From a virus (lineage: Duplodnaviria; Heunggongvirae; Uroviricota; Caudoviricetes): 64,000 bases of DNA. A program made the position numbers and the translations under genes. The stretch is from IMG/VR virus record IMGVR_UViG_3300032318_002198, one strand, 5' to 3'. Shown here piece by piece: positions 1,181-54,983 of this stretch; the first letter of the stretch is position 1; every line of letters starts with the position of its first letter. The notes beneath the pieces are model-generated. The model saw only the letters and a program-made list of their open reading frames with translations, did not search any database and was not told where the DNA came from.

Positions 1181-2630
1181 AATTGAGATCATCGACGAAG
1201 TTAATGTTAAAATATCAAATTTAGATTTAGATACTAGAAAATTCTTAGTTAAGAAATTTAAATACGAAGATCCAACTGCAAGGTATCGCCCAGCATATAA
1301 GTTAGGTAGATGGGACGGTACTGTTAGTTTTTTTGGGTTAGGCGGAACTACCTATCTCTCAATGTTACCTACAGTATTAGAGTACCTCGAAGAGAGAAAT
1401 TATACAATTGAACTAGAAGATAAAAGAAATCCAATATCATTGTCATTTGATCATATAAATGAGGAATTTTGGGGGGATAAAGTATGGCCCTCGGGGCATC
1501 AACTCGAAGGCAAACTTATCAGACTAAGAGATTATCAAATAGATGTAATTAATAAATTTTTAGAAAATCCACAATCTATACAATCGGTATCAACAGGAGC
1601 CGGCAAAACTATCATAACGGCTACTTTAGCAAAAATCTGTGAGAAATACGGTAGAACAATCACTATTGTTCCTAATAAAAGTCTTGTTGAACAAACCGAA
1701 GAAGATTTTATTAATTGTGATCTTGATGTTGGAGTTTATTACGGAGATAGAAAAGACATTGGAAAAACTCATACAATCACAACTTGGCAAAGTTTAAATA
1801 TCTTAGATAAAAAAGCGAAAGATCTTCCGGCAGAAAAATTAAAATTAGAAAATTTTTTGTCCAACGTTAGTGCCGTTATTGTTGACGAATGTCATGGTGT
1901 AAAAGCCGATGTATTAAAAAATCTATTAACAAATCAACTATCTCACGTATTTGTTCGATGGGGTTTAACAGGAACTATACCCAAAGACGATATTTCTTTT
2001 ACAAATCTTAATGTTTCTTTGGGAGAAGTAGTTAATAAAGTCAGTGCTAGTAATTTACAAGAACAAGGAGTTCTTTCCAAATGTAATGTAAATATTTTAC
2101 AATTTTTAGAATATCGAGAATTTAATAGTTATGCCGAAGAATTAAAGTTTTTAGTTACAAATCAAGAAAGATTAGATTATATTGCCGAATTAATTGATCA
2201 AACTTCAAAATCGAGCAACAGTTTAATTTTAGTAGATAGAATTGAAACAGGAAAGTACTTACAATTACAAATAAAAGATAGTGTTTTTATTTCAGGTCAA
2301 GTAAAAACTAAAGATAGAAAGTCTGAGTACGATGAAGTTAAAACAGCACAAAATAAAGTAATTATCGCTACCTATGGAGTTGCGGCCGTTGGTATAAATA
2401 TTGTTAGATTACACAATTTGTTTATGATTGAACCCGGAAAAAGTTTTATAAGAGTAATACAGTCTATTGGACGAGGATTACGAAAAGGACATGACAAAAA
2501 TCATGTCGAAATATATGATATTACATCTACATGTAAGTTTTCTAAAAAACATTTAACTGAACGAAAAAAATATTATGCCGAAGCCAACTACCCTTACACC
2601 ATTAGAAAAATCAACTATTCTTCAACATAA
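1167..2630 (+). CDS. uvsW: SF2 DNA helicase, T4 UvsW-like
   Basis: LRDYQ Q-motif, TGAGKT Walker A, DECH, GLTGT, QSIGRGLR; likely TTG start at 1167 after GGGAGA RBS. Confidence 0.88.
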   Translation: MPVCKIEIIDEVNVKISNLDLDTRKFLVKKFKYEDPTARYRPAYKLGRWDGTVSFFGLGGTTYLSMLPTVLEYLEERNYTIELEDKRNPISLSFDHINEEFWGDKVWPSGHQLEGKLIRLRDYQIDVINKFLENPQSIQSVSTGAGKTIITATLAKICEKYGRTITIVPNKSLVEQTEEDFINCDLDVGVYYGDRKDIGKTHTITTWQSLNILDKKAKDLPAEKLKLENFLSNVSAVIVDECHGVKADVLKNLLTNQLSHVFVRWGLTGTIPKDDISFTNLNVSLGEVVNKVSASNLQEQGVLSKCNVNILQFLEYREFNSYAEELKFLVTNQERLDYIAELIDQTSKSSNSLILVDRIETGKYLQLQIKDSVFISGQVKTKDRKSEYDEVKTAQNKVIIATYGVAAVGINIVRLHNLFMIEPGKSFIRVIQSIGRGLRKGHDKNHVEIYDITSTCKFSKKHLTERKKYYAEANYPYTIRKINYSST

Positions 2631-4317
2631 AGATAAGTTACTTAATCTCCGATTATTTAAAAAAATAAAAAATTTTTTAAATACATTAGGAATTGAGAAA
2701 ATTGACCAAACAGAATTATATGATTTATTGTTCAATTCATCGCTTAAAAATTGTAACAATTCTAAATTTGTGTCGTTTTCAGTAGGTTATCGGGCATGCG
2801 AAAAAGGATGTGAATGTTATTTAAAAAATCTTTCAAATAAGATATCAACTATAAAATCAACAACAACTGTTGAGCAACAAAAAGAAATTAATGAAAAAAG
2901 AAAACAAACTACTTATCTCAAGTATGGGGTAGAAAATGTATTTGCACTCGACGATATAAAAGAAAAGAGCAAACAAACTAAAAAATTAAAATATGGAGAT
3001 GAAAATTATCGCAATGATCAAAAAATAATAGAAACTAATATTAAAAAATATGGTGTCGATAATCCAATGAAATCGACCGAAATTAGAGAATTGTATTATA
3101 AAGATTTTATACTTAGAGATTTTGCTGCATCTGTTAGAAAAGCTAAACAAACTAAAAAATTAAAATATGGAGATGAAAATTATCGCAATGATCAAAAAAT
3201 AATAGAAACTAATATTAAAAAATATGGTGTCGATAATCCGTCAAAATCTCTGGTTGTACAACAGAAAATATCAAAAAATCTTAGATCTACCTTATATGAT
3301 AGAACTGTTGAAAGATATTCTTCATTTATAAAACCGCTGTTCGATAAAGAAAAATATTTAAATGGTTTATCTAATTCTTGGGAGTGTGTTAGATGTCAAA
3401 CCATATTGACGGGTTCTATTATTAACGGCATTATTCCGAGATGTCAGACATGCTTTCCTTATTCAATATCCAAATTTGAGTTAGAGGTTCGAGATTTTTT
3501 GAAAACATTAGTGAATCCTGATCTTTTAATATTCAATGATCGAACTTTAATATCTCCTCAAGAATTAGATATAGTAATTCCATCTAAACATCTTGCATTT
3601 GAATGCAACGGTGCATATCGACATTGCGAAAATTCCGGATTAAAATATAGAAATTATCATCTTAATAAATCTACTAATGCCACTAAATCTGGTTATTCAT
3701 TAATGCACATTTTAGATGTTGATTGGTATCATTCTCAAAATATTGTTAAATCTATGATTAAACATAAACTGGGGTTGAGCACTCGTATCGGCGCTAGAAA
3801 AACTCGATTAGTTACATTGACCCATGACCAAGCAATTAAATTTTTTAATTCAAATCATCTTCAAGGCGGTATTCCTGCGCGAATAACATATGGATTACTT
3901 GTCCAAGATCAAATTGTTGCAGCCATGAGTTTCTCAAAGTCTAGATATACAACCGATGCAACATGGGAAATTATCAGATTTTGTAATAAAAATGATCATG
4001 TTATATTAGGAGCAGCATCGAAATTATTAACGCATTTCAGAAAAAATCATTCGGGTTCTATATTAACATATGCTGATAGGAGCTTTGGTTCAACAAATTT
4101 TTATGAAGAAATTGGATTTTCGTATTTGTCAGCATCTCCTCCGGGATATCGATATTATAAAGATGGCTTATTGTTTTCAAGGATTCAATTTCAAAAACAT
4201 AAATTATCGAACTTATTACAAGAGTATGATCCAAATAAAAGTGAATGGGAAAACATGCAAAATAATGGGTTTGACAGATTATGGGATTGTGGAAATTCAA
4301 TATTTGTATTAAAATAA
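2575..4317 (+). CDS. putative free-standing homing endonuclease (KYG repeats, CxxC zinc ribbon, PD-(D/E)xK-like nuclease, C-terminal GNAT-like region)
   Basis: KYGVEN/KYGVDNP repeats, CVRC..CQTC, ELDIVIPSKHLAFECNGAYRH, WEIIRFC..GAASKLL..YADR..DCGN; true start uncertain. Confidence 0.65.
   Translation: MPKPTTLTPLEKSTILQHKDKLLNLRLFKKIKNFLNTLGIEKIDQTELYDLLFNSSLKNCNNSKFVSFSVGYRACEKGCECYLKNLSNKISTIKSTTTVEQQKEINEKRKQTTYLKYGVENVFALDDIKEKSKQTKKLKYGDENYRNDQKIIETNIKKYGVDNPMKSTEIRELYYKDFILRDFAASVRKAKQTKKLKYGDENYRNDQKIIETNIKKYGVDNPSKSLVVQQKISKNLRSTLYDRTVERYSSFIKPLFDKEKYLNGLSNSWECVRCQTILTGSIINGIIPRCQTCFPYSISKFELEVRDFLKTLVNPDLLIFNDRTLISPQELDIVIPSKHLAFECNGAYRHCENSGLKYRNYHLNKSTNATKSGYSLMHILDVDWYHSQNIVKSMIKHKLGLSTRIGARKTRLVTLTHDQAIKFFNSNHLQGGIPARITYGLLVQDQIVAAMSFSKSRYTTDATWEIIRFCNKNDHVILGAASKLLTHFRKNHSGSILTYADRSFGSTNFYEEIGFSYLSASPPGYRYYKDGLLFSRIQFQKHKLSNLLQEYDPNKSEWENMQNNGFDRLWDCGNSIFVLK
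2971..3239 (+). repeat. exact 95-bp duplication inside the endonuclease gene
   Basis: 2971-3065 identical to 3145-3239 (KQTKKLKYGDENYRNDQKIIETNIKKYGVDNP). Confidence 0.9.
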
Positions 4318-5537: not shown

Positions 5538-6233
5538 ATGATTGCACTAGTAGAACAACCGCATATTTGCGTACATTGCAACAAACGATTTATGCAGGCG
5601 CGGACACTTATATCGCATTTATGTGAACGTAAACGTCGAGCATTACAACGAGATGAAAAACGTGTCCAAGCAGGATTCCTAGCATATAATAGATTTTGGC
5701 AATTGACACAAAATGCTCGTAAACCGAAAACTTATGATGAATTTGCTGACAGCAGTTATTATAATGCCTTTGTAAAATTCGGAAGTTACATCAATAATAT
5801 CAATCCGTTATATCCAGATAAATTCATCGACTACGTTATTAAAACGGGTGAAAAATTAGATAATTGGTGTAAAGATAAAGTATACGAAACATATCTATAC
5901 GAAACACTTAAAACTGAACCAGTAGAATCTGCTATACAACGTACATTGCAAACAATGATGGAATGGGGAGATTCACATAATGCGAACTTTGCCCATTACT
6001 TCGATTATGCTAGTTTGAATTTGGTTGTACATGATATTATTAATGGAAAAATTAGTTGTTGGCTATTATTGAATAGCACATCGGGAAAAAAAGTCATACA
6101 AAATATGTCAGACGAACAGTTAACAATGATAGCACCGGCATTCGATATTAAATTTTGGATGAAAAAATTTAAAGAAGTTCCGGCTGATGTTATATTGGTA
6201 AAGGAAATTTGTAAAGAAATAGGACTAGAATGA
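5538..6233 (+). CDS. hypothetical protein with N-terminal zinc finger
   Basis: CVHCNKRF...HLC. Confidence 0.6.
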   Translation: MIALVEQPHICVHCNKRFMQARTLISHLCERKRRALQRDEKRVQAGFLAYNRFWQLTQNARKPKTYDEFADSSYYNAFVKFGSYINNINPLYPDKFIDYVIKTGEKLDNWCKDKVYETYLYETLKTEPVESAIQRTLQTMMEWGDSHNANFAHYFDYASLNLVVHDIINGKISCWLLLNSTSGKKVIQNMSDEQLTMIAPAFDIKFWMKKFKEVPADVILVKEICKEIGLE

Positions 6234-7108
6234 CAGATAAAATATCAGTATTCGGAGGATCGGGATTTATTGGAAGTAGGTTCTGTGAGTTATATTCCGA
6301 TCAATCCATTAAGATTGATAGAGATGATTATATACCAAAAAGCGACAACATATTATATTTTATAAGTACGATCGATAATTACAACATACATCAAGATTTG
6401 TACCTAGACATCGATACAAATTTAACGGTATTGATGAAAATGTTAGAAAACATTGATAAAAATAATAAGAATGTTGTAATCAATTTTGTTAGTTCTTGGT
6501 TTGTATATGGAAAGAACGAAATTCTTCCGTTTAGAGAAGATACTACACATTGTAATCCAACTGGGTTTTATTCTATAACAAAAAGATGTGCAGAACAAAT
6601 GTTAATATGTTTCTGTGAGACTTTTGATATAAAATATAGAATTTTTCGACTATCTAATGTTTTAGGTGTCGGGGACAAAAAGATATCAAAAAAGAAAAAT
6701 GCATTTCAATACATGGTAAAAGAAATTGTTAATAATCGAGATATAGAATTATATTATGACGGCAATGTTATTCGAGACTTTATACATGTAGATGATGTAT
6801 GTACAGGAATAAAAACATGCTTAGATAATGCCAAATATAATGAAATAATAAACATAGGTAGTGGGGTCCCCACACTAATTGTTGATTTGTTAAAAACAAC
6901 CCATGCGTTATCTAATTCAACAGCAGAATTAAAATTTATTAATCCTACTAAATTTCATAACATAGTTCAAACTCGAAACTCATACTTAGATATTACTAAA
7001 CTAAAAAAATATGGATTTGAACCAAAATATAATGTATACGAAACTATAAATGAATTAATAGAATATTATAAGGATAAACAACATTACAGCCCGATGCTCA
7101 AAATGTAG
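6230..7108 (+). CDS. NAD-dependent epimerase/dehydratase (extended SDR)
   Basis: GGSGFIG, YSITK, RDFIHVDD, NIGSG. Confidence 0.85.
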   Translation: MTDKISVFGGSGFIGSRFCELYSDQSIKIDRDDYIPKSDNILYFISTIDNYNIHQDLYLDIDTNLTVLMKMLENIDKNNKNVVINFVSSWFVYGKNEILPFREDTTHCNPTGFYSITKRCAEQMLICFCETFDIKYRIFRLSNVLGVGDKKISKKKNAFQYMVKEIVNNRDIELYYDGNVIRDFIHVDDVCTGIKTCLDNAKYNEIINIGSGVPTLIVDLLKTTHALSNSTAELKFINPTKFHNIVQTRNSYLDITKLKKYGFEPKYNVYETINELIEYYKDKQHYSPMLKM

Positions 7109-7122
7109 GAAAGTGGAAAATT

Positions 7123-7479
7123 ATGAGATTAGAAGGATTTGTACCTAAAGGTTGGGGCCATGAACTCATATGGGCCACCAATGAAAAATACTGCGGAAAA
7201 CTATTAAAATTTAACAGAAATGCTAAATTTTCAATGCATTTTCATGCCGAAAAAGACGAAACTTGGTATGTTTTGGAGGGAAAATTTTTAGTGAGGTATA
7301 TTGATACATCTGATGCAACTACACGCGAAATAACCTTAGAAACCGGATCTATTTGGCATAATCCACCAAAACTACCACATCAAGTTATTTGTCTAGAAGA
7401 AGGTACTATCATAGAAGTTAGTACACCAGATAGCGTAGAAGATAATTATCGAATAGCCAAAGGAGATAGTCAACAATGA
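7123..7479 (+). CDS. cupin-fold sugar isomerase-like protein
   Basis: KGWGHE, SMHFHAEKDETWYVLEG, PHQ, EVST. Confidence 0.75.
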   Translation: MRLEGFVPKGWGHELIWATNEKYCGKLLKFNRNAKFSMHFHAEKDETWYVLEGKFLVRYIDTSDATTREITLETGSIWHNPPKLPHQVICLEEGTIIEVSTPDSVEDNYRIAKGDSQQ

Positions 7480-7961
7480 AAACAATATATCTTGATATGG
7501 ATGGAGTAGTCGCTGACTTTAATTCATATGCCAAAAAAGTTCTTAACACTACAGAAAAAAATCATAATTGGCCTAATGAAGAATGGATAAAAATTGGTAG
7601 AAATCCACGTCTCTATCGAGATTTAGATAAAACCCCAGAAGCAGACGAATTGGTAACATTTTGTCGAAACATGTGCAAAGAAAATAATTGGAATTTATTT
7701 TTTCTTACCGCAGTTCCAAAAAATAATGATATGCCTTGGGCATATTACGATAAAATACAATGGATATTAAAATATTACCCAGACATTCCTGTATTTTTTG
7801 GACCATATAGCTTTAGTAAATGGACACATTGTAAAAATCAAGATATATTAATTGATGATCGTCCTAGCAATTGTGATCAGTGGACTGCGGTTGGAGGCAT
7901 TTCGATCTTGCATCAAGGTGACATTGCTGAAACTTTACAACGTTTACGAAACTTATCATGA
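7476..7961 (+). CDS. HAD-family 5'(3')-nucleotidase-like phosphatase
   Basis: YLDMDGVVADF, LTA, LIDDRPSN. Confidence 0.8.
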   Translation: MKTIYLDMDGVVADFNSYAKKVLNTTEKNHNWPNEEWIKIGRNPRLYRDLDKTPEADELVTFCRNMCKENNWNLFFLTAVPKNNDMPWAYYDKIQWILKYYPDIPVFFGPYSFSKWTHCKNQDILIDDRPSNCDQWTAVGGISILHQGDIAETLQRLRNLS

Positions 7962-8734
7962 AAATACTAATAACAGGACATCGAGGATTTATTGGCCAAA
8001 ATATGGTCAATGCATTAAAAGATCACCATACACTTAGTTTTTACGAGTGGGGAGATTCTCCACCGGAGATCGAAGGACTCGATTGGGTGATACATCTTGG
8101 TGCTATCAGTAGTACAACCGAACAAGACGTTGATAAAATAATGAAACAAAATCACGATTTTAGTTGCATTATGTTGATGGCTTGTCAGATACATGGCGTT
8201 AATTTACAATACGCTAGCTCAGCAAGCGTATACGGTTTGAATACTAGAAACTTTAAAGAAGACGCAGATCTACAACCATCTAGTCCATATTCATGGAGTA
8301 AATATCTTTTTGACAGACATGTAAAAACACAAAAATTTAATAATATCTACGTACAAGGTTTTAGATATTTTAATGTATATGGGTCATTTGAAGATCATAA
8401 AAAAGACCAAGCTAGCCCATATCATAAATTTGAACAACAGGCAAAAACAACCGGGATTATAAAATTATTCGAAAATTCCACTCAATATTATAGAGACTTT
8501 GTTCCGGTCGAGACCGTGATTGATGTACATAAGCAATTTTTTAATGTTAAGAAATCTGGTATATGGAATGTGGGTACAGGAAAGGCAAGAAGTTTCCAAG
8601 ACGTAGCTGATGAAATCGCCAAAAAATATAATGCTAAGATTGAATATATACCAATGCCCGAAGAATTAAAAAATCAATATCAAACTTATACTCAGGCCGA
8701 TGTAACAGAGTTAAAAAAATATTACAATGTATGA
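7958..8734 (+). CDS. hldD: ADP-L-glycero-D-manno-heptose 6-epimerase-like
   Basis: ITGHRGFIG, HLGAISSTTE, YASSASVYG, YSWSK, FRYFNVYG..EDHK, NVGTG, YQTYTQAD. Confidence 0.78.
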   Translation: MKILITGHRGFIGQNMVNALKDHHTLSFYEWGDSPPEIEGLDWVIHLGAISSTTEQDVDKIMKQNHDFSCIMLMACQIHGVNLQYASSASVYGLNTRNFKEDADLQPSSPYSWSKYLFDRHVKTQKFNNIYVQGFRYFNVYGSFEDHKKDQASPYHKFEQQAKTTGIIKLFENSTQYYRDFVPVETVIDVHKQFFNVKKSGIWNVGTGKARSFQDVADEIAKKYNAKIEYIPMPEELKNQYQTYTQADVTELKKYYNV

Positions 8735-9135
8735 CTAAAATTGTAGTTAATGGATCATTTGATATATTACATGTAGGACATGTACGTTTATTGGAATATG
8801 CAAAATCATATCCAAATGCATATGTATTAGTATTAATCGATAGTGATACCAGAATACAACAATTAAAAGGTGAAAATCGGCCTGTTAATACCGAATACGA
8901 ACGTGCTACAATGTTATCAGCATTTAGAGCAGTCGATCAAGTAGAAATATTCAACACAGATCAAGAATTAATAGACTACATAAAAAACTACAATCCGGAT
9001 ATTATGATCAAAGGTAGTGATTACATCGATAAACCAATCATAGGTGCTGAATTTTGTAAAAAGATTATATTTTATGACCGACTTGGAAAATACTCCACAA
9101 CCAACAAAATACAAGATATTGCTCATAGGGGATAG
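8731..9135 (+). CDS. cytidylyltransferase-family nucleotidyltransferase (HldE domain II / HldC-like)
   Basis: GSFDILHVGH, KGENRPVN, KGSDY, STT. Confidence 0.8.
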   Translation: MTKIVVNGSFDILHVGHVRLLEYAKSYPNAYVLVLIDSDTRIQQLKGENRPVNTEYERATMLSAFRAVDQVEIFNTDQELIDYIKNYNPDIMIKGSDYIDKPIIGAEFCKKIIFYDRLGKYSTTNKIQDIAHRG

Positions 9136-9859
9136 TTGTATAGATGAGTACTATTATGGTACTTGTGATCGTTTAAACCCTGAAGCTCCTGTACCGGTAT
9201 TGAAAATCACAAGATCGAGTACAAGCCTCGGTATGGCCGCGAATGTTAAATCAAATTTAGAATCATTCGGCTGCGATGTTGATTTTATGACCGGTGGTAA
9301 AAAATCAATCAAACGAAGATATATAGATGAACGTAGTAAACAACATATAGTAAGAGTTGATGAGGACTACAATAGTACACCATTTAATCCCTATCAACCA
9401 TCATTGGCTTACATACAATATAATGCTATAGTTATCTCAGATTACAATAAAGGATTTATAACCTACGATAATATTCAAGCTATTAGAGAACAATATGATG
9501 GGCCTATATTCATTGATAGCAAAAAGAATGACCTAATTCGATTCGAAGGTTGCTATATGAAGATTAATGAAAATGAATATAAACAAACTATCTCACAATG
9601 TTCCGATCTTATCGTGACATTGGGAGAACGAGGAGCACAATATAAAGATCAATTATATCCCACCCAAAAAGTTGAAGTAGTTGATGTATGTGGTGCAGGT
9701 GATACTTTCCTTGCCGCATTGTCTTATTACTATTTGAAGAATAATCACTCCATCGAATCTGCTATAATCTATGCTAATAAATGTTCAGCCATTGCTGTAC
9801 AACATAGGGGTGTATATTCACTAACACAACAAGATATAGATGTAATCGAAAATGACTGA
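9074..9859 (+). CDS. PfkB-family heptose-7-phosphate kinase-like (HldE domain I / HldA-like)
   Basis: IGDSCIDEY, RLNPEAPVPV, SDYNKG, DVCGAGDTF. Confidence 0.82.
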   Translation: MTDLENTPQPTKYKILLIGDSCIDEYYYGTCDRLNPEAPVPVLKITRSSTSLGMAANVKSNLESFGCDVDFMTGGKKSIKRRYIDERSKQHIVRVDEDYNSTPFNPYQPSLAYIQYNAIVISDYNKGFITYDNIQAIREQYDGPIFIDSKKNDLIRFEGCYMKINENEYKQTISQCSDLIVTLGERGAQYKDQLYPTQKVEVVDVCGAGDTFLAALSYYYLKNNHSIESAIIYANKCSAIAVQHRGVYSLTQQDIDVIEND

Positions 9860-10427: not shown

Positions 10428-10798
10428 ACTTTAGGAATACGTATTAGTTGAATTGACTTGCGTTTTATTCTTTTTTCTGCAAGATCATTGAGACTTAATT
10501 GATGTCCAAATACTAAAACTATATCTTTACTGTTGAATGTTTTTATAGAATATTTGAATATATTCATTTCTTGTTTAAGAAAAATGTTTATAGGAATTTT
10601 TCTATTACTTTCCCACCACCAAGCTTCTCCTAATTCTAAGAATAATCGTCGCTCGTTATCGGATTTAATAACACTTAAATCATAGATCGAGGCAAAAGTA
10701 TTGTCAAAATTGATAATTATTCCTATATATTCGATATCATTGCTTTTAATACAGCTTAAAAACGGATATTGATTTTTAAATTCGTCTACTGATTTCAT
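10424..10798 (-). CDS. hypothetical protein
   Basis: ORF with WWWESNRKIPINIFL; ATG 10798 after GAGG. Confidence 0.65.
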   Translation of the reverse strand: MKSVDEFKNQYPFLSCIKSNDIEYIGIIINFDNTFASIYDLSVIKSDNERRLFLELGEAWWWESNRKIPINIFLKQEMNIFKYSIKTFNSKDIVLVFGHQLSLNDLAEKRIKRKSIQLIRIPKV

Positions 10799-12711: not shown

Positions 12712-14068
12712 CTACAACTTAGAAACACAAAAAATATATTTAGAAATGTTTTTGTCTGATGCAGAAACATTCTTACGCTGTCAAAACATTTTTGACCCTG
12801 AAAACTTTGATAGAAAATTACAATCTACGGCAGAATTTATTAAAAATTATGTAGATCAGTATAAAGTAATGCCAGATGTTGAAATTGTTAATGCTACTTG
12901 TGAAACCAGTTTACAAAATATAAAACTACCTATTGAAAATTATGATTGGTTACGAGACGAGTTTGAACAATTTAGTCGTCATAAAGCATTAAATCGTGCA
13001 ATATTGAAATCAGCCGATCTTTTAGAAAAAGGAGAATATGGCCCGGTTGAAAAATTAATTCGAGATGCTATTCAGATTAGTTTGAATCGAGACATGGGCC
13101 TCGATTACTTTGAAGATCCTAGAGCACGTTTAACTAAACTTAAAGACGGTAATGGTCAAATTAGTACTGGTTGGCCTAGTATTGATAAAAAACTCTACGG
13201 TGGTTTTAATCGAGGCGAACTTAATATATTTTGTGCAGGATCCGGTGGAGGAAAATCTTTATTCTTAGCAAACCTTGGCGTTAATTGGGCATTAATGGGA
13301 TTAAACGTTTTGTATCTAACCTTTGAACTTAGCGAAGGATTAGTTGCAATGCGTCTTGATAGTATGATGACTGGAATTTCTACTAGAGAAATTTTTAAAA
13401 ATATCGATGATGTAGAACTTAAGGTTAAAATTATAGGAAAAAAATCAGGAAGCATTCAAGTTAAATATATGCCTTCGGGTAAAAATTGTAACGATATAAG
13501 AGCATATCTAAAAGAATATCAAGTTAAAAAAGGTGTAAAACCTGACGTTATTTTAATAGATTACTTGGATCTTATGATGCCATTGAGCGTTAAGGTTAGT
13601 CCCAGTGATCTGTTTGTTAAAGACAAATATGTATCCGAAGAAATAAGAAATCTTGCGATGGAAACACAATCGATTACAGTTACAGCAAGTCAGCTTAATA
13701 GATCAGCAGTAGAAGAAATTGAATTCGATCATAGCCATATATCTGGAGGTTTGAGTAAGATTATGACTGCTGATAATGTGATTGGTATCTTTACCAGTCG
13801 AGCTATGAAGGAACGCGGTAGATATCAAATTCAATTTATGAAAACACGTTCTAGCTCAGGTGTGGGACAGAAAGTAGATTTAGAATTTAATATGGAAAGT
13901 TTGAGAATAACCGATCTGGGCGAAGAAGAAAATACTAGACCAGAACCTCAAATAGCATTGAATACATTGAAAAGAACTAGTACAACTAATTCTCCTGCTC
14001 CTGCTCCGACTAAAGCTGCAACAAATATACGATCAATTTTAGAACAACTTAATCAAGAAAAAGATTGA
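12698..14068 (+). CDS. replicative helicase (DnaB / T4 gp41 family)
   Basis: STGW, GGFNRGEL, AGSGGGKS, IDYLDL, TASQLNR, KTR. Confidence 0.9.
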   Translation: MQKFNYNLETQKIYLEMFLSDAETFLRCQNIFDPENFDRKLQSTAEFIKNYVDQYKVMPDVEIVNATCETSLQNIKLPIENYDWLRDEFEQFSRHKALNRAILKSADLLEKGEYGPVEKLIRDAIQISLNRDMGLDYFEDPRARLTKLKDGNGQISTGWPSIDKKLYGGFNRGELNIFCAGSGGGKSLFLANLGVNWALMGLNVLYLTFELSEGLVAMRLDSMMTGISTREIFKNIDDVELKVKIIGKKSGSIQVKYMPSGKNCNDIRAYLKEYQVKKGVKPDVILIDYLDLMMPLSVKVSPSDLFVKDKYVSEEIRNLAMETQSITVTASQLNRSAVEEIEFDHSHISGGLSKIMTADNVIGIFTSRAMKERGRYQIQFMKTRSSSGVGQKVDLEFNMESLRITDLGEEENTRPEPQIALNTLKRTSTTNSPAPAPTKAATNIRSILEQLNQEKD

Positions 14069-14712
14069 TTGATCCAACAACGACTTTGCATTTGAGCACT
14101 GTTTTCCATTACTCGGGTCCATTGTGCTTCACCATCATAATTAAAAACTAACGAAGAATTGACCCGGGAAACTTCCCATAAATGATCCTGAACATCAACA
14201 TCAGGATCTAAATTGAAAATTTGCTCTTTTAATGTCTCCATGTCCCAACGCCAACTGCCTACACATGCTCTATATAATTTTGGACCCTGATTACCACATA
14301 ATGCACTTAATATACTGAGATCGCTGGTAATACCTATACAATTATCAACTGTTATCGTACTGGGTCCAGTCCAATCTAAACTATGAACAAAATGCATACG
14401 ATTTGAACCTAATACACCACCTTGATATACATTATCCTGTATTATCTTCTCCGCACTTTCAAAACCTAGGTTAGATACTATACGTTTTAAGTTTATTCCT
14501 TCGAGTCTACGGTTTAATTGCAATCCTAATACACTATTATCAATTTGATGAAATAATAGTATAACTCCTTTGTATAAAGAATCTCTTGGATTTTTAGGAT
14601 TACCGCCTAATAATAAACCACGACCCCATACCTCAGTAGTATCAATCGAAAATATATTTGAATTAGAAACAATATTACTCATCATATTACTATTTAACAT
14701 AACCGATTTCAT
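14053..14712 (-). CDS. YqgE/AlgH (DUF179)-like protein
   Basis: GLQLNR, VYQGG, HFVHS, YRACVGSWRW. Confidence 0.65.
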   Translation of the reverse strand: MKSVMLNSNMMSNIVSNSNIFSIDTTEVWGRGLLLGGNPKNPRDSLYKGVILLFHQIDNSVLGLQLNRRLEGINLKRIVSNLGFESAEKIIQDNVYQGGVLGSNRMHFVHSLDWTGPSTITVDNCIGITSDLSILSALCGNQGPKLYRACVGSWRWDMETLKEQIFNLDPDVDVQDHLWEVSRVNSSLVFNYDGEAQWTRVMENSAQMQSRCWINQSFS

Positions 14713-18166: not shown

Positions 18167-18758
18167 GATATAAATGTTAAACTCCGAAATTTATACAATA
18201 TTTATACTCTATTTATATTTTTCACTACCACCCATGCCCCTCTATATACATACTATAAAAAAATTTTGCAAAAAAAATTTTGAAATACGATTTCTACCAC
18301 TACCCAAGAATTTTATATACACTATCAAAAATTTTGCTGCACAATTTTTTAAAGGTCTGGAGATCTCGGCCCCAGGTGATACAGTCTAACCCATACTGGA
18401 TTTTGAGGCTTTGAGAGAGATTTGGCAAGCCAAAAGTTGTATTTTTACAACAGTGCTATATACTACCCCTCCCCCCTGTGGGGTCCTAGCCCCTCCTGCT
18501 TGTCTCCGGTAGCTGCCACGCCGCCCGTGGGATTCTGCACTAATTTTTTAAAACCCCACGACTTATTTTATTACGGTATGACAAGGTGCTGTCCTGCCAT
18601 GGGGTTCAATAGTGTAGTGTTTTAGTATGCTATTATAACATGCCCCAAGTAGTATGTTATAATAGCGCACAAGTAAACAGTAAGCAGTAGTGTGACTATA
18701 CACAATTGGACCCACATGAGCTAATGTTATTCACAAGTGTTGTAGCTTGGGGTAGTAA

Positions 18759-18812
18759 TAGTGTAGTGTTTTAGTGTGTTATTGCTTGCGTGTGTGTTTT
18801 TTGCTGTATACT
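18759..18812 (+). promoter_or_regulatory. rightward promoter with repeated upstream element
   Basis: TAGTGTAGTGTTTTAGTGTGTTATTGCTTGCG followed by TATACT; same 32-mer at 20426. Confidence 0.6.
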
Positions 18813-18856
18813 TGCACTTGCTGCAACAACGCAGTGCAACGCAAACAGTACGCAAC

Positions 18857-19468
18857 ATGCCAAAACTTACAGCACAGCAAGCACAGCAAGCAATTGCTAT
18901 GCATGCAAACTCCCACACAATAACTGCACAGCAAATTACTGCTGCCCTTGGGAACGCTAGTGTTACTTTCGCGCAACTTTTGTACGTTACGCAAGTGCAA
19001 CTAGCAGCACAGCACCGGGGCCAGTGTATACAAAAAGTTACAAGTGCAAATGTAATTTTGTGCAGCAACGTAACAGCAACGTCCCGTGTGTATGCGCGCA
19101 AAGTGCAGCGTAGTGCGTTGGGGTATGCACAAAACGCAGCAGCAGCAATCGCAGCATTTACAGCACAACAAAACTACTACACGCACACCCCATGCTACAG
19201 CGTTGTGCAGCATGCACAGCACGCTGAGAAGTTGTATTTGTATGCACTCTACAACACTGCAAGCAGTGTATACATGCACAATAATGCTGTTGTTAGCAAG
19301 CAACAAGTAGCGCTGTATTGCACCCCAAGTGCAGCAGCAAAATTGTTGCAAGATGGGAGTGAGGTACATAACAAAACGCACAACATAGTGCATAATGTGC
19401 ATGTGCGTACAATTGCACTTAGCAATTTAGTGCATATGCGTGTGCGTAAGCAATTGCTTACAGTGTAA
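18857..19468 (+). CDS. GA/TC-depleted hypothetical protein (203 aa, only 3 acidic residues)
   Basis: open frame after promoter; Ala/Gln/His/Val-rich; about 11 GA+TC dinucleotides in 612 nt by manual count. Confidence 0.7.
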   Translation: MPKLTAQQAQQAIAMHANSHTITAQQITAALGNASVTFAQLLYVTQVQLAAQHRGQCIQKVTSANVILCSNVTATSRVYARKVQRSALGYAQNAAAAIAAFTAQQNYYTHTPCYSVVQHAQHAEKLYLYALYNTASSVYMHNNAVVSKQQVALYCTPSAAAKLLQDGSEVHNKTHNIVHNVHVRTIALSNLVHMRVRKQLLTV

Positions 19469-19743
19469 CGCAGGACCCCATGTATAGCACACGCAGCAGT
19501 TGTGTGCTGGTGCGTGGGGTTCGCTGCTGCCCCACGCAGGCTACTATGATACAGCAGGTGATTGTTGAGGGGTTTGCCCCACGCGAACGCCGTCGTAAAT
19601 TTAATTTTGAGGTTTGGGGTTAGCCCCACGCTAGCTGCATCGTGTGCATTTAGCTGCCCGTGGGGTTATTAACCCTAAGGGTAGTAGGGTTATTGCAGAA
19701 ATTGCTATGTGGTGTTATACTGATTTGAGTGTTAGGAGTAGTC

Positions 19744-20010
19744 ATGTTTCTCGTGCCCGCAAACACCGTAATTCAAGTGCAAGCACCGAAAAGCTTGCAT
19801 CATTTCAACTGGTGTGGGTGGATTTCGTATACCACGCCTGCGGATCGGCTCTACGAGAAGGAGGATGTGTGGGATCCTGTTGCGCTGCATTATCGAATTG
19901 ATGTACCCCAGTGGATTGCTCGAAACGTACTGGAACACAATCGTGTGGTGATTCATTGCAAGGGTAAGTATGCTCTTGTCCTGCCCAAAGACATTCGTTA
20001 CTTGGATTAA
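19744..20010 (+). CDS. hypothetical protein
   Basis: AGGAG RBS before ATG. Confidence 0.65.
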   Translation: MFLVPANTVIQVQAPKSLHHFNWCGWISYTTPADRLYEKEDVWDPVALHYRIDVPQWIARNVLEHNRVVIHCKGKYALVLPKDIRYLD

Positions 20011-20015
20011 AAATT

Positions 20016-20234
20016 ATGCCAACAACCCCTTGTCGTGTGCTTGTTCGAGCGACTCTAGTAGTGCGGGACGTTTACATCTGTCGTAAATGCGACGCTCGTC
20101 AGACAGGCGAAGCGTACTCTGTAGAGACCAGTGACCCGTTGCATACACTCTCTCAGAACCTCCCGAAACCGCGTTTCATGCCTGTTGGCTGGGCAAGCTA
20201 TCTCGACGGGTTTGATTGCCCTAACCATCACTAA
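20016..20234 (+). CDS. small Cys-containing hypothetical protein
   Basis: CRKC...DCPNH. Confidence 0.5.
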   Translation: MPTTPCRVLVRATLVVRDVYICRKCDARQTGEAYSVETSDPLHTLSQNLPKPRFMPVGWASYLDGFDCPNHH

Positions 20235-20278
20235 TTCGTTAATAATTGAACTGTAGGTGGTTTACAGCGGGGTTTTCA

Positions 20279-20357
20279 GCCCCACTACGAACAAAAGAAA
20301 CCCACAGAACCTGCGCATGGGGCCCCACTACGAACAAAAGAAACCCACAGAACCTGC
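20279..20357 (+). repeat. 36-bp direct repeat x2
   Basis: GCCCCACTACGAACAAAAGAAACCCACAGAACCTGC at 20279 and 20322. Confidence 0.9.
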
Positions 20358-20425
20358 TTGTGGGGTAGGTTCACTTTCGCCCCACTACAAGGAGTATGGA
20401 ACCCAGTAATGTTGTAGTGAGGCCT

Positions 20426-20479
20426 TAGTGTAGTGTTTTAGTGTGTTATTGCTTGCGCTATGTATTTGTGTGCTATACT
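20426..20479 (+). promoter_or_regulatory. second copy of the rightward promoter
   Basis: same 32-mer as 18759, then TGCTATACT (extended -10). Confidence 0.6.
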
Positions 20480-20505
20480 ACTCACAGCAACAAAGAAAGC
20501 AAACT

Positions 20506-20670
20506 ATGGCGAAATTTGTATACAAGCAGACACAAACTTTTTATTTGCACATAGATGCAGACACGCAAGAGGAAGCAGACGCTATTGCGGAAAAAACGGA
20601 AACATATGCAGACGACGTATCTGCTACAGAGTTAACCGGCTGGGAGTTAGAGCTCCCCACTAATAGCTAA
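20506..20670 (+). CDS. small acidic protein
   Basis: MAKFVYKQ..IDADTQEEADAIAE; 54 aa, downstream of promoter. Confidence 0.6.
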   Translation: MAKFVYKQTQTFYLHIDADTQEEADAIAEKTETYADDVSATELTGWELELPTNS

Positions 20671-20759
20671 CTGGCAACTGATGCAGCTGACATGGGGTTT
20701 GCCCCACAGGATGCGCCCAGTTGCCTAAGAAAGCTGCCCTGGGGTCCTTGTGCCCCACT

Positions 20760-21080
20760 TCAGGGTTTCGATTCTTCGTCAACAGGTCCGTCGTTCACCT
20801 CACGGCAGTGAGCCAGACAGGCTTCAAGATTTTTCAGAGCCTCCTCCGGGGTGCTGATGCCAAGAGATATGTTCCGCACCCATTGAATACCGTTTGTGGC
20901 CATATCTGCCCACTCGTTTGCGGCGTGCTGCCAATTCTTTCGCTCCGGCTGCTCTAGCGCGGCGCGGAGGGCAAAACCGGCGCGCCTGCACTTGTCGCTT
21001 TGTGCTTTTGGCAAGAGCATTTGCAAAGACTCATCCAACGCTTCCAGCGCCTGATTAACAGCAACTATCAACTGATCCAT
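20760..21080 (-). CDS. hypothetical protein
   Basis: GAGGGG RBS; ALEAL..ALRAALEQ pattern typical of small phage proteins. Confidence 0.6.
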   Translation of the reverse strand: MDQLIVAVNQALEALDESLQMLLPKAQSDKCRRAGFALRAALEQPERKNWQHAANEWADMATNGIQWVRNISLGISTPEEALKNLEACLAHCREVNDGPVDEESKP

Positions 21081-21093
21081 GTTTCACCCCTCT

Positions 21094-21303
21094 TCAAAAA
21101 AGCTGATGTTGTCGCCATACATCTTTTGCCAGGTCAAGGTCCAGGGTATAGACCGCCATCACCAAGCAATATAGCCCCAAGGCAACGTAGTAGAACGGCA
21201 TCAACAACAGATTCCACAGTATGCGGACAGGGTTATGCAGTCGCATCTGATTCCAGTACCAACCACGCTTGTTGATTTCGAACTTGCCCACTTTTAAGTT
21301 CAT
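21094..21303 (-). CDS. small membrane protein
   Basis: hydrophobic segment; upstream TTGACT-17-TATACT promoter. Confidence 0.55.
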   Translation of the reverse strand: MNLKVGKFEINKRGWYWNQMRLHNPVRILWNLLLMPFYYVALGLYCLVMAVYTLDLDLAKDVWRQHQLF

Positions 21304-21899: not shown

Positions 21900-22222
21900 A
21901 CAGTTTTACCTCACTCCGGAATCAGTTTGGTGCCACTGTGCAGGTAAATCTCTGCCCCTGGACGACACGTCCACACAGCAGCTTCGAGTATCTCAAAGAT
22001 GAGCTTCGTCTCGAGGGGTTGATTCACGCTGCGATAGTGACGAAAATGACCCTTCGTTTGGCAGATGATCATCTGTGCCGTATGATTGTCGACCTTCATC
22101 AGTGAGATGCCGTTTTCGTCTCGGATCATGTAATTCATAATATAATTCACAGCCGACTCCTTTGTGTTACACAATACCGATATGTTAACACTGATCAAAA
22201 ACCCTGTCAATTCAACGGGCTT

Positions 22223-22720
22223 TTAGATAAGACCCCGTTCGGCGAAACTGACAACCGAGTTGCCTACGACAAAGTGATCCAAGACTCGAACATCCACCAA
22301 CTGTAGGGATGACTTGAGGGTTTGTGTCAAGTATTCATCTGCTCGCGAAGGTTCTGCTGAGCCTGAGGGATGATTGTGTGCAAGCACCACAGCAGCTGAA
22401 TTCAGCAGGATAGACTCGCGTACTACCTCCCGAGGGTATACACTGGTCTGCGTTAGTGTCCCGCGGAACAAGGTGCGAGCTTCGATCAAGCGATGATGAG
22501 CATCAAGGAACAACACAGCAAACTCCTCACGACCCTGCTGCGATGCTTCGGCGAAGTAGAGTCTGAGGTAATCTTTGATGCTCACAGGGCTATCGAATAT
22601 CGGTCCCGTGCGAACACGAGCCGACAAGATACGTAGAGCCTGTGCTACGATGTCCTCATCGGTTGACGATGAGTGGTTGACAACGTACACAGGGGGATCA
22701 CACGACTGAGCAGTTGTCAT
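22223..22720 (-). CDS. radC: RadC-like JAB-domain protein
   Basis: [33 protein letters not shown]. Confidence 0.9.
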
Positions 22721-51957: not shown

Positions 51958-52932
51958 ATGGCAGCTTTAGATTTTCCGTCAAATCCGAGTACAGGTACAA
52001 TATATGTTGGTGACAATAATGTTACATATACGTTTGACGGGATAAAATGGATGGGACAGGTTGACATAGGTTCTCAAGGATTTCAAGGAATTCCTGGAGT
52101 AACCGGTGCCCAGGGTGCAACAGGGCCAACTGGAGCACAAGGGCTAACTGGCGCCCAGGGAGTGCAAGGTGCAACGGGCGCTCAGGGTGTACAAGGAGCA
52201 ACTGGCACCCAAGGAGTTCAAGGTGCTACCGGTAATTTAGGTGCCCAAGGAGCAACGGGCGCCCAAGGTGCCCAAGGTGCGCAAGGATTCCAAGGTATTC
52301 ATGGGACAGTTGGGGTGCAAGGTGCCCAGGGAGTAACTAACTTTGATTCGTTAACATTTATTTCCGGAACTGGATCTCAGGTAGTAAAAGTATCTAATAC
52401 AGTAACTATATGGTCCACGGCCACGTTACAAAACGTTACTGATTACGGTAATATCACAAATAAAACAATAACAATAACTAACACTACGGAATCATTATCC
52501 ACAAATTCAGGTGCATTAACAGTTTTAGGTGGTATCGGAGTCGGAGGCAATTTAAATATTGCAAAAAATTTAACAATAAATCGTGTTCAAGAATCTTTTG
52601 TTAATATATCTGGTGCTACTGGTGTGGTTGTGCATGATACATCTATATCAAAAATATTCAATCACACTAGCATAGCGAATTCATTTACTGTAAATCTTAG
52701 TAATTTAACTTTAGATTCTGAGTATTCCACAGTTGTAGTATTGTTGTTAAATCAATCTGCTACACCATATACTCCTGTTGGCTTACAGATAAATGGAGTA
52801 TCGAGAACAGTTAAATGGCAAGGTGGATTGCAACCTGTAGGAGTGAGTTCAAGTACAGATGTAATTAGTTACACTATCTTGAATAATGCAGGAACTTATT
52901 CGGTTCTTGGACAATTGGTACCATTTGGATAA
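51958..52932 (+). CDS. collagen-like fibre protein
   Basis: ALDFPSNP N-terminus; GAQ/GAT triplets. Confidence 0.8.
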
Positions 52933-52936
52933 TCTT

Positions 52937-53698
52937 ATGCCGTTTTTATCATCTACTACTGGAACATATGGATATGGAAGAAATTCTGTTGTTGGAACAG
53001 ATATTTTCTATGACCAAACTGAATTGCTATTACACATGGATGGTCAAGACGACCAGGTTTTAATTTTTGATTTTAGTTCGAGAGAAAAGCAAGTAGTAAA
53101 TAACTTTATTGGTGCAAGAATCAAAACAGATCAGTTCAAATTTGGTGGGTCATCTGGATTTTTTAATAATGTTAATTCATATCTAACTGTCACAGACGAA
53201 GCAGCATTTAATTTTTCTACGGGCGATTGGACTGCTGAATTGTTTTGTAGAGTTAATCCCATTGAAACTGACATATTAGTTAATAAAGCCGATGGAGTTG
53301 GATTCTTCGGGTATCAATTAAGAATTGTCGATAATAGATTTTCTGCGAAAGGATATGATAATAATATTTCCCCCAATCCTTTTTTAGCATACGATCTTGG
53401 TAAAGGCCTCGGTCCTATAGTTCAACCAGATGTCTGGTATCATGTAGCAATGTGTCGACAACTATCTAATTTTTACCTATATGTTGATGGAATTTTAGTA
53501 GATTCTGCGGTATCGTCTGCTGTTTTATACAACAGTGTTTCGCCGTTATCTATAGGCGGAACAAGCAATGGCCAGGCATTAACTTCTGGATATATAGATG
53601 AATTAAGGATTACAAAGGGTGTTTGCAGATATCCTAACGGTATTAATTTCCCTGTTCCTACAAAGAGATTTTATGACAAATATTTTGGCCCTGCTTAA
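52937..53698 (+). CDS. LamG/concanavalin-like virion protein
   Basis: LLLHMDG, KFGGSS, WYHVA, LYVDG, GYIDELRITKG. Confidence 0.8.
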   Translation: MPFLSSTTGTYGYGRNSVVGTDIFYDQTELLLHMDGQDDQVLIFDFSSREKQVVNNFIGARIKTDQFKFGGSSGFFNNVNSYLTVTDEAAFNFSTGDWTAELFCRVNPIETDILVNKADGVGFFGYQLRIVDNRFSAKGYDNNISPNPFLAYDLGKGLGPIVQPDVWYHVAMCRQLSNFYLYVDGILVDSAVSSAVLYNSVSPLSIGGTSNGQALTSGYIDELRITKGVCRYPNGINFPVPTKRFYDKYFGPA

Positions 53699-53843
53699 AT
53701 AAAGAATTCAACTAAATAGTTTTATAATGAAAACCACTGACGTTATAAGAAATGTTTTAGATCTAATAGACGGTACAGATTGTGATGTTGAATTGCAATT
53801 TACTACTATTGCAGAACCAGAAGTTAACAATAATGATTAAACA

Positions 53844-54983
53844 ATGACGATCCAATACGTAAACACAGGTACTAGTTCGAATAAAGGTGACGGGGACTCC
53901 ATTCGAATTGCTTTTGGAAAAATTAATTATAATTTCTCACAATTAGCTGGGCTAGTAAGTAATTCCAGCGCCACTATTATTGTTAATTCTTTCCCTCCGC
54001 TTAATCCAGAAGAAGGAACACTTTGGTACGATATTGTCAGCGGACATCTTTATATCTATTATGATAGCACTTGGGTAGATTCTAACCCACCTTCGTCACC
54101 TGGAGCACAAGGTGCCCAAGGGATTCAAGGAATCCCGGGCGCGCCTGATGGTTTCCAAGGAGCTCAGGGATTCCAAGGAGCTCAGGGATTTACAGGGCAT
54201 CAAGGTTTTCAAGGATTTACTGGATTTCAAGGTTTCCAAGGAAGTCAAGGATTCCAAGGAAGTCAAGGTTTCCAAGGAAATCAAGGATTTACTGGATTTC
54301 AAGGTTTCCAAGGAACACAAGGATTTCAAGGTGCTCAAGGTATACAAGGTCGTCAAGGTTTTCAAGGAGCGCAAGGTTTTGACGGATTCCAAGGTATTCA
54401 AGGCGCACAAGGTATACAAGGTCGTCAAGGTATTCAAGGACCTCAAGGTATTCAAGGATCACAGGGATTCCAAGGAAATCAAGGATTTACTGGATTTCAA
54501 GGATTTACTGGATTTCAAGGTTTCCAAGGAAGTCAAGGTATCCAAGGAAGTCAAGGTATCCAAGGAAATCAAGGATTTACTGGATTTCAAGGTTTCCAAG
54601 GAAGTCAAGGATTCCAAGGAAGTCAAGGTATACAAGGAAGTCAAGGTATCCAAGGAAGTCAAGGTTTCCAAGGAAATCAAGGTTCGATCGGTGCACCAGG
54701 TGTAGGCGGCGGAAATATTTCAGGATTTGTTTTAATAAACGGAAACTATGTAATGTCTACTTCAGACGATTGTGTTATAAGCACAGCAACCAGTAGTGTA
54801 ACAGTAACTTTACCAAGTGTGTCAACAGTAAAAAGTTATTATTTTCAAAATTTCAGCACCGCAAGTATGACCTTACAAACAGTTAGTAGCGAATTGATAA
54901 ATAACGATACAAGTTTGATACTGCAATTTAATGAATCTTCATGCAGATTAATATCAAATGGTACAAGATATTTAATTTTCTAA
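53844..54983 (+). CDS. collagen-like fibre protein
   Basis: GDGDSIRIAFGKIN, LWYD; long GxQ repeat. Confidence 0.85.
   Translation: MTIQYVNTGTSSNKGDGDSIRIAFGKINYNFSQLAGLVSNSSATIIVNSFPPLNPEEGTLWYDIVSGHLYIYYDSTWVDSNPPSSPGAQGAQGIQGIPGAPDGFQGAQGFQGAQGFTGHQGFQGFTGFQGFQGSQGFQGSQGFQGNQGFTGFQGFQGTQGFQGAQGIQGRQGFQGAQGFDGFQGIQGAQGIQGRQGIQGPQGIQGSQGFQGNQGFTGFQGFTGFQGFQGSQGIQGSQGIQGNQGFTGFQGFQGSQGFQGSQGIQGSQGIQGSQGFQGNQGSIGAPGVGGGNISGFVLINGNYVMSTSDDCVISTATSSVTVTLPSVSTVKSYYFQNFSTASMTLQTVSSELINNDTSLILQFNESSCRLISNGTRYLIF

Follow-up and report, generated by a model that had tools for sequence, protein, structure and literature searches.

Results

A conserved early gene with almost no GA, GG, TC or CC

The DNA analysed here, which we call the window, is a 64,000-nucleotide (nt) stretch of a virus of the class Caudoviricetes (IMG/VR record IMGVR_UViG_3300032318_002198), and our subject is a gene for a protein of 203 amino acids (aa) at positions 18857-19468, together with its surroundings, from which the dinucleotides GA, GG, TC and CC have largely been removed. 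The window comes from a jumbo phage and encodes a primase and a ligase, a large capsid-like protein, and two helicases, one UvsW-like and one DnaB-like; the latter shares 53% identity with its counterparts in Pseudomonas phage PA5oct and Agrobacterium phage Atu_ph07. The gene is of the immediate-early type, in an uncultured PA5oct/Atu_ph07-like jumbo phage, with tandem sigma-70-like promoters predicted upstream. The features of the locus are as follows.

18610..18665, plus strand: P1, distal promoter-like element; copy 1 of the 17-nt word TAGTGTAGTGTTTTAGT, then a TATAAT palindrome
18759..18812, plus strand: P2, proximal promoter-like element; the same 32-nt upstream word (100% identical over 32 nt to the copy at 20426), TTGCTT at 18782-18787, a 19-nt spacer and TATACT at 18807-18812
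18819..18856, plus strand: leader of about 38 nt without a Shine-Dalgarno sequence; conserved word GCTGCA-ACAAC-GCAGTGCAAC
18857..19468, plus strand: protein-coding gene, 203 aa; recognised by its open frame, 201 homologues, ratio of nonsynonymous to synonymous substitution rates (dN/dS) and fold prediction
19470..19700, plus strand: array of G4/C4 hairpins (GTGGGG...CCCCAC type); repeat families D3, D11 and D14
20426..20479, plus strand: P3, third promoter-like copy; TTGCTT at 20449-20454, a 19-nt spacer and TATACT at 20474-20479
20506..20670, plus strand: acidic early open reading frame (ORF) of 54 aa, assigned from message-strand counts to class A, defined below

The ORF at 18857-19468 is a genuine gene. 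It has no in-frame stop (the other two frames have 7 and 10), and among 5.8 billion proteins searched it has 201 homologues with 56-99% identity, nearly all exactly 203 aa long, several on contigs of 230-375 kb and none with a Pfam domain. Pairwise dN/dS in the family is 0.13-0.32, with dS > 1, and AlphaFold2 with a 47-sequence alignment produced an alpha/beta model with a pLDDT of 90.6 and a pTM of 0.83. The family consists of conserved early genes of uncultured jumbo phages. The protein gave no credible match to Pfam, PHROGs or a PDB sequence profile, and Foldseek found no match of the model in the PDB; structure matches in BFVD and the ESM Atlas were to uncharacterised phage proteins only. 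The best VIA structure match was the WYL domain of PafBC (Z 5.3, about 80 residues aligned), a score below the trusted level, followed by further WYL and Hfq/Sm rows with Z 3.5-4.6, and an ESM Atlas match to WYL reached a template-modelling score of only 0.32. With no family match and a weak fold match, the protein is at most a candidate for the anti-defence role that an earlier note on this DNA had proposed. DNA and protein similarity searches with the locus and two sister genes matched none of 50,697 cultured phage records, and Rfam and tRNA scans of the locus returned nothing.

The depletion is local and acts on nucleotides

Within the 612 nt of the ORF, GA occurs 6 times (43.3 expected from local base composition), TC 5 times (32.2), GG 11 times (30.2) and CC 15 times (34.8), and GC, CA and TG are in 1.9-2.3-fold excess. 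An earlier note, made from the letters of this DNA without database searches, had described the near-absence of GA and TC, the confinement of GG and CC mostly to runs and a protein poor in acidic residues, and these observations are confirmed: the remaining GG and CC sit in runs of C3-4 and G3-4, and the protein has 1 Asp and 2 Glu among 34 Ala, 22 Gln and 12 His. The note put GA/TC first; the unifying rule is wider, in that a G is not followed by a purine and a C is not preceded by a pyrimidine. We call this rule GR/YC, where GR stands for GA and GG and YC for TC and CC, and a YC on the message strand is a GR on the template strand.

The note had also proposed dinucleotide odds ratios as a check. 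Across the 64-kb window these are 0.92-1.09 for the four dinucleotides, and hence the depletion is local. The combined count of GA and TC between 18601 and 19600 is 2-7 per 200 nt, against a window mean of 23.0 (standard deviation 5.7), and the six longest gaps without GA or TC in the window all lie here, the longest measuring 180 nt from 18731. The four dinucleotides together have a density of 6.0 per 100 nt in the 203-aa gene and 20.2 in the rest of the window. The core of the depletion spans 18606-19474 and fades out by about 19700; the start of the following gene, at 19745, is preceded by an ordinary AGGAG ribosome site, and the window holds no second place with comparable depletion.

The words GCA, CAG and CAA are abundant at the locus, as they would be if no dinucleotide selection existed and the pattern had come about as the by-product of a Gln/Ala-rich protein of low complexity or of an origin in simple repeats. 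Shuffling the codon order of the ORF gave expected junction counts of 13.9 for GA, 13.8 for TC and 14.3 for GG, against 3, 0 and 3 observed; none of 5000 shuffles was as low, and the GR/YC total across codon junctions was 13 against 52 from shuffled order. Since these counts fall so far below the shuffle, the constraint acts on nucleotides, beyond the choice of amino acids. In the window's gene, 24 of 37 violations are at junctions or synonymously avoidable positions, clustered in the C3-4 and G3-4 runs. The by-product explanation also fails to account for leaders, terminators and unrelated neighbouring genes that, like the junctions, follow the rule, for a conserved and confidently folded alpha/beta protein, or for outgroup homologues of ordinary composition (see below). 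We regard it as refuted by the junction and homologue tests and leave it next to no probability. The earlier proposal that selection acts on the nucleic acid and reshaped the protein is thus borne out, by the junction test, by homologues with zero counts and by purged leaders and terminators. A hypermutation footprint is likewise unlikely, with G+C not lowered and TT and AA not enriched.

The ban is strict at the base of the family and has relaxed many times

We compared 61 loci from IMG/VR and metagenomes at the DNA level. Nine have not a single GA, GG, TC or CC in about 612 nt, where the background is 17-18 per 100 nt; about twenty others have 1-8 of these dinucleotides, and the remainder grade continuously into the genomic background (17-20 per 100 nt). 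Among 120 homologues, Asp makes up 1.0% of residues, Glu 0.7%, Gly 0.5%, Pro 0.4% and Trp 0.0%, and these are precisely the residues that cannot be encoded without GA, GG or CC. The homologues therefore retain the bias, as the earlier note had suggested checking, with all five residues replaced. Because both bans are completed in this gene, the strict family uses only 15 amino acids.

In the protein tree, a five-member outgroup clade has ordinary composition and the ingroup is strict at its base, with relaxation many times independently on long terminal branches. The window's copy and its 97%-identical partner L016 sit on one such relaxed branch, so that the window appears to represent a lineage with a partly relaxed, decaying ban. 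In relaxed lineages, an AAGG or GGAG ribosome site has reappeared at the correct spacing from the ATG, the -35 box reads TTGACA once more, and the protein again contains Pro, Gly, Asp and Glu; because this has happened repeatedly, the ban is probably costly and maintained only under pressure. On this evidence, selection on a two-base word has reshaped the protein and overridden the ribosome-binding site, and the near-zero counts imply that it works at single sites.

Neighbouring early genes follow the ban on one strand

Unrelated small genes of the same islands are equally purged (L009 7658-11948, L013 8985-9752, L001 4293-4619 and L002 8636-8941), and in the outgroup phages the homologue is unpurged while its neighbour is purged. 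A further grade, class A, is one-stranded: the message strand is free of YC and GR is plentiful. G001 2571-2852 has 21 GA, 14 GG, no TC and no CC on the message strand, and G002 99174-99500 (minus strand) has 23, 15, 0 and 0. In the window, P3 and the 54-aa ORF (20424-20619) together contain one TC/CC and 17 GA/GG on the message strand. The relatives contain 25 class A zones; seven more scored as reverse-oriented appear to be mis-oriented ORF calls or zones nearly free on both strands.

Across 26 acidic sister ORFs, codon junctions contain TC 2 times against 80.8 expected and CC 3 times against 86.9; these ORFs encode no proline, and their serine codons are AGY only. Junction GA and GG are reduced to about half to two-thirds of expectation (79 vs 154 and 176 vs 266) and are fully avoided in the acidic ORFs of L009, and Gly codons are mostly GGY and Arg codons mostly CGY. 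Hence, the ban has two grades. The ban on message-strand YC is near absolute in all such early units, including the acidic neighbours; message-strand GR is removed as far as the protein tolerates, completely so in the 203-aa family.

The two grades bear on several explanations. CmdT, of the CmdTAC defence system, ADP-ribosylates the adenine of GA in single-stranded mRNA (10.1101/2024.02.24.581662), an anti-phage enzyme with dinucleotide specificity, and the 203-aa message is nearly GA-free and has no Shine-Dalgarno sequence. However, the acidic early genes carry 11-31 GA each and only 0-2 TC and 0-2 CC each, so that GA is not the primary target, and CC, TC and GG are not CmdT sites; a CmdT-like reader of GA on mRNA is ruled out as the main driver. 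DarT2, mentioned in the earlier note, reads TNTC and leaves the ban on CC unexplained, and no consensus motif is known for DarT1.

The note had further suggested a first-entering locus stripped of defence target sites. Many restriction sites and several CRISPR protospacer-adjacent motifs do contain GA/TC or GG/CC, and the classical early regions of T7 and T5 likewise place small genes behind strong host-type promoters, next to small acidic proteins. Contigs also frequently end near the 203-aa locus, which could reflect a terminal repeat. Avoidance of restriction sites would nevertheless not leave the many palindromes that remain at the locus, where those without banned steps (TGCA, GTGCAC, GCAGC, CAGCTG and others) are enriched rather than avoided, nor would it purge sister genes on one strand only. 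A ban on dinucleotides far exceeds what sites of 4-6 bp call for, and it tracks transcription units, with interruptions in the spacers between them, rather than a contiguous entering segment. In the sole complete relative (G003, 364 kb, with no purged zone anywhere), the homologue lies at 277 kb. We therefore consider this explanation very improbable.

Evasion of the termination factor Rho would account for the message-strand half of the ban and for where that half begins and ends. Strongly transcribed, poorly translated early messages without YC would be invisible to Rho, whose primary binding clefts are YC-specific (PMC12360218). Avoidance of Rho is known to shape coding-strand composition (PMC13323073), and the published cases resemble ours in that message-strand YC is avoided in connection with transcription that outruns translation (PMC13323073, PMC12360218). 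The units have strong tandem promoters and leaders without Shine-Dalgarno sequences, and their message-strand YC ban runs from start site to intrinsic terminator. The depletion of YC on the message strand alone, as Rho would require, is seen in the acidic gene at 20424-20619 and in the 25 zones of relatives; the 203-aa gene is low in both YC and GR. Rho needs several YC per about 80 nt, so isolated YC should be tolerated, whereas YC is observed only about 0.2 times per 100 nt, or not at all over kilobases, with all proline sacrificed. The known avoidance is a mild, genome-wide purine bias (PMC13323073), in contrast to a near-absolute ban in a few early units that comes with a GA/GG ban and no purine enrichment. 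The 203-aa ORF does not have the low-C, high-G composition of a purine-biased message; it is C-rich rather than G-rich (C 146 and G 136 in the window, C 144 vs G 113 in L001), the reverse of the usual Rho-avoiding bias. The GA/GG ban is also unexplained by Rho, so that a second pressure would be needed; that ban would make antisense RNA Rho-proof too, and a search for antisense promoters as the cause of the two-strand ban gave only heterogeneous, chance-like matches. Evasion of Rho is therefore an improbable cause of the whole pattern.

The ban spans predicted transcription units from promoter to terminator

In 24-26 distinct strict loci, the banned steps are as rare in about 100 nt 5' of the ATG and about 50 nt 3' of the stop as they are within the gene (about 0.3%), and outside these limits the background dinucleotide level returns. 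Upstream lies a sigma-70-like promoter (cTTGCA, 17 nt, TATAAT), followed by a leader of some 40 nt that lacks a Shine-Dalgarno sequence, an element that cannot be written without GA or GG. Downstream lies an intrinsic terminator with a GR/YC-free stem and a T-run, and banned steps resume directly after the T-run; spacers between units are not purged. In class A units, the ban starts at the -10 box or just past it: in L010 the promoter spacers are rich in TC and CC, and in L040 both TTGACA and CCC lie upstream of the start of the ban. With start sites placed by promoter motifs, the ban appears to cover whole early transcription units and to end at the intrinsic terminator. A cause at the level of codons or tRNAs was rejected: leaders, terminators and junctions obey the rule, and NTT is allowed and NTC banned although one tRNA serves both.

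The conserved leader word, GCTGCA-ACAAC-GCAGTGCAAC, is nearly invariant in 16 loci; only three base pairs are predicted in it, and no covariation was found across the 16 loci. In relatives, the promoters are arrayed in tandem, two or three copies about 90 nt apart, and therefore much of the 'promoter' DNA may itself be transcribed. In the window, P2 is free of GA, GG, TC and CC. The word TAGTGTAGTGTTTTAGT (repeat family D2) has three exact copies in the window, with 0.3 expected. P1 contains a 36-nt palindrome (18630-18665) with ATAACA-17-TATAAT and a TG extension on both strands (18632-18663), so that TG-extended TATAAT boxes point in both directions; no gene lies between P1 and P2.

A scan found no canonical terminator after the 203-aa gene of the window. 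The hairpin array that follows it (19470-19700) lacks a T-run, and GA and TC are still scarce there while GG and CC are abundant. G4/C4 hairpins of this kind (GTGGGG...CCCCAC, GGGGTTTGCCCCAC) are scattered through intergenic DNA over 18548-20760, four or five of them after the 203-aa gene and none with a T-run.

Several other elements were seen near the early units. A direct repeat TGTAACA-N3-TGTAACA stands just upstream of the -35 box in L026, L027, L005, L036, L028, L020, L029 and L007; it is thus kept at the promoter of the 203-aa gene in many relatives and is probably the binding site of a putative regulator. In L001 (4281-4295), a second purged gene begins 6 nt past its TATAAT box, so that the transcript probably lacks a leader. 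Immediately 5' of P3, a 43-nt unit occurs twice in tandem (20279-20364), with 93% identity between the copies. An AT-rich divergent intergenic region (18170-18560) with four copies of a AAAAATTTTG-type word separates the early units from a minus-strand block that ends at 18166, and could be regulatory or origin-like.

Phage context of the locus

The contigs with strict loci are 8-45% complete. In a gene-content comparison of strict and unpurged phages, G001 and G002 had just five ORFs in common. The window's nearest large relative, G004, has a single small purged zone. The early region of the window is flanked by AlgH-like (DUF179) and RadC-like JAB-domain proteins (14053-14712 and 22223-22720, both on the minus strand). 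An ORF of 580 aa resembling HNH/homing endonucleases (2575-4317; PHROG 3339/559, DUF7487) is inserted after the UvsW-like helicase gene, and two collagen-repeat proteins of 324 and 379 aa (51958-54983) lie beside large genes that look structural (55450-59040 and 59253-61040). Within the replication module, positions 6230-9859 hold a cluster for sugar-nucleotide and nucleotide metabolism:

6230-7108 and 7958-8734: two NAD-dependent epimerase/dehydratases
7476-7961: NT5C-type 5'-deoxyribonucleotidase
9044-9859: PfkB-family kinase

Homologues of this cluster in G004 lie at 200-213 kb, adjoining a PTPS/QueD-like gene, and the cluster may be part of a DNA hypermodification pathway. The record of PA5oct (L071) lists two 'putative lncRNA' (long noncoding RNA) features from RNA-seq, at 8263-8498 and 21951-22401, which fall inside a 39-kb terminal repeat of small early genes; short GR/YC-poor stretches of 150-190 nt lie nearby, at 10488-10666 and 21061-21222.

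Discussion

We tentatively favour, at somewhat under an even chance, the reading that G before a purine is chemically altered in the DNA of this phage group and that the early units keep such G off the template. During the first minutes of infection, an altered G on the template would impede the unmodified RNA polymerase of the host. The early units would then exclude GR from the template along their whole length, start site to terminator, and from the other strand where possible, and since each GR site would count singly, counts would reach zero. The alteration could have either of two sources, which our estimate joins: the phage itself, through guanine hypermodification like that reported for PA5oct at GA/GG, or the host, through an enzyme attacking GR guanines, with hypermodification as the genome-wide cure adopted by other phages.

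Support for this reading comes from PA5oct, the closest cultured relative, in which a modified G was reported 'in a GA and/or GG motif' (PMC12191111). QueE- and PTPS-like genes are described there as well, together with END nucleases that depend on modification and act early, and guanine hypermodification at GA/GG motifs is treated for PA5oct-like (Wroclawvirus) and other phages (PMC12191111). The banned GR step matches the motif inferred for the modified G of PA5oct exactly, and the ban is stronger on the strand that the polymerase reads. Two relatives of the window, G003 and G004, have a PTPS/QueD-like gene above the cut-off, along with a weak QueC-like match. A link to GA/GG-directed guanine modification is thus plausible, with literature support in a relative. 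Phage CAjan reportedly carries preQ0 at GA and GGC.

Several points weigh against altered guanines. Evidence for modification is limited to PA5oct, so that modification in the window's phage and in the strictly purged relatives is putative, and in PA5oct itself the first 50 kb contain no purged early gene. Of the PTPS-bearing relatives, G003 has no purged zones and G004 one small zone, a sample that comes to three with PA5oct. The window, G001, G002 and another five fragments yielded no QueD/PTPS-like gene, and none turned up in the strict contigs, which are too incomplete to be scored. The dpdA gene that the earlier note had suggested seeking (DpdA/TGT, PF01702) was not found in five related records, one of them complete; the strict relatives are represented by fragments, and the window is 64 kb of a much larger genome. 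A modification-free island within a modified genome has not been described for PA5oct-like phages. The start sites that delimit the ban are inferred from promoter motifs, and a reader of RNA explains the stronger half of the ban equally well. 7-Deazaguanines keep Watson-Crick pairing and are not known to stall RNA polymerases. The earlier idea that the locus is kept free of the phage's own modification so that host RNA polymerase can read it therefore stands only in part: the PA5oct motif agrees with it, and the unpurged or relaxed state of PA5oct and of the QueD-bearing relatives does not. Because PA5oct, G003 and G004 are unpurged or nearly so, host attack with modification as an alternative cure fits better than the phage's own modification.

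Lesions of other kinds were rejected. Ultraviolet (6-4) photoproducts form at TC and CC, and TT is not avoided, on the template strand included; guanine oxidation at GG and GA hot spots gives non-blocking lesions and offers no reason for limits at transcription units.

A factor acting in a single hit at pyrimidine-C on single-stranded nucleic acid, either a host defence or a phage shut-off enzyme, is unlikely in our estimate. Candidate enzymes are an endoribonuclease, a cytosine deaminase of the APOBEC-like kind, an ADP-ribosyltransferase directed at cytidine or thymidine, and a dC-specific nuclease resembling EndoIV of T4. The mRNA and the exposed non-template strand would be hit most, giving the absolute ban on YC, and the template less, giving the weaker ban on GR. 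Such a factor suits a ban that is strand-graded and confined to the unit, counts so near zero that single sites must matter, and a relaxation so often repeated independently that the factor may vary with the host; the G+C of the purged genes, not being lowered, points to avoidance rather than to a product of hypermutation. Equally short specificities exist, as in CmdT at GA in single-stranded RNA and DarT2 at TNTC, and ADP-ribosylation of cytidine is known. The literature searched, however, yielded no enzyme of bacteria or phages that acts on phage RNA or DNA with YC specificity. Terminator stems are purged although they are double-stranded in RNA, and the match to the GA/GG motif of PA5oct would be due to chance, except if that modification arose in response to the same factor.

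More broadly, an activity in infected cells, encoded by host or phage, may read the bare YC/GR step on transcribed nucleic acid; this is possible, though we would not expect it. If it is true, the activity is strong enough for a clade of jumbo phages to recode its first-expressed genes, and GA/GG hypermodification of the PA5oct type is an alternative, genome-wide answer to it.

Loss of target motifs has familiar forms, among them APOBEC3 footprints at TC, avoidance of restriction sites and ACA-less mRNAs that resist MazF, and in each a short word needed by a factor acting on nucleic acid is removed. Those cases are statistical depletions or concern words of 3-6 nt, whereas here two-letter words are at zero over whole genes, five residues are lost and the effect is graded by strand. 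We found no paper describing this dinucleotide ban in the literature searched.

Should the ban mark sites where guanine is modified or damaged, modification motifs and immediate-early genes of uncultured phages could be predicted from sequence alone; should it instead reflect a factor that reads YC/GR, it points to a new mechanism of defence or host shut-off. The purged cassettes are ready-made test objects, in which synonymous restoration of the words should reveal the factor. Either way, escape from a dinucleotide-specific factor through loss of sites is within the reach of evolution for selected genes, contrary to the judgement of the CmdTAC authors, who held such escape implausible (10.1101/2024.02.24.581662). 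Selection on a two-base word can prevail over both protein composition and ribosome-binding sites, and folded, conserved proteins made of 15 amino acids are possible in nature.

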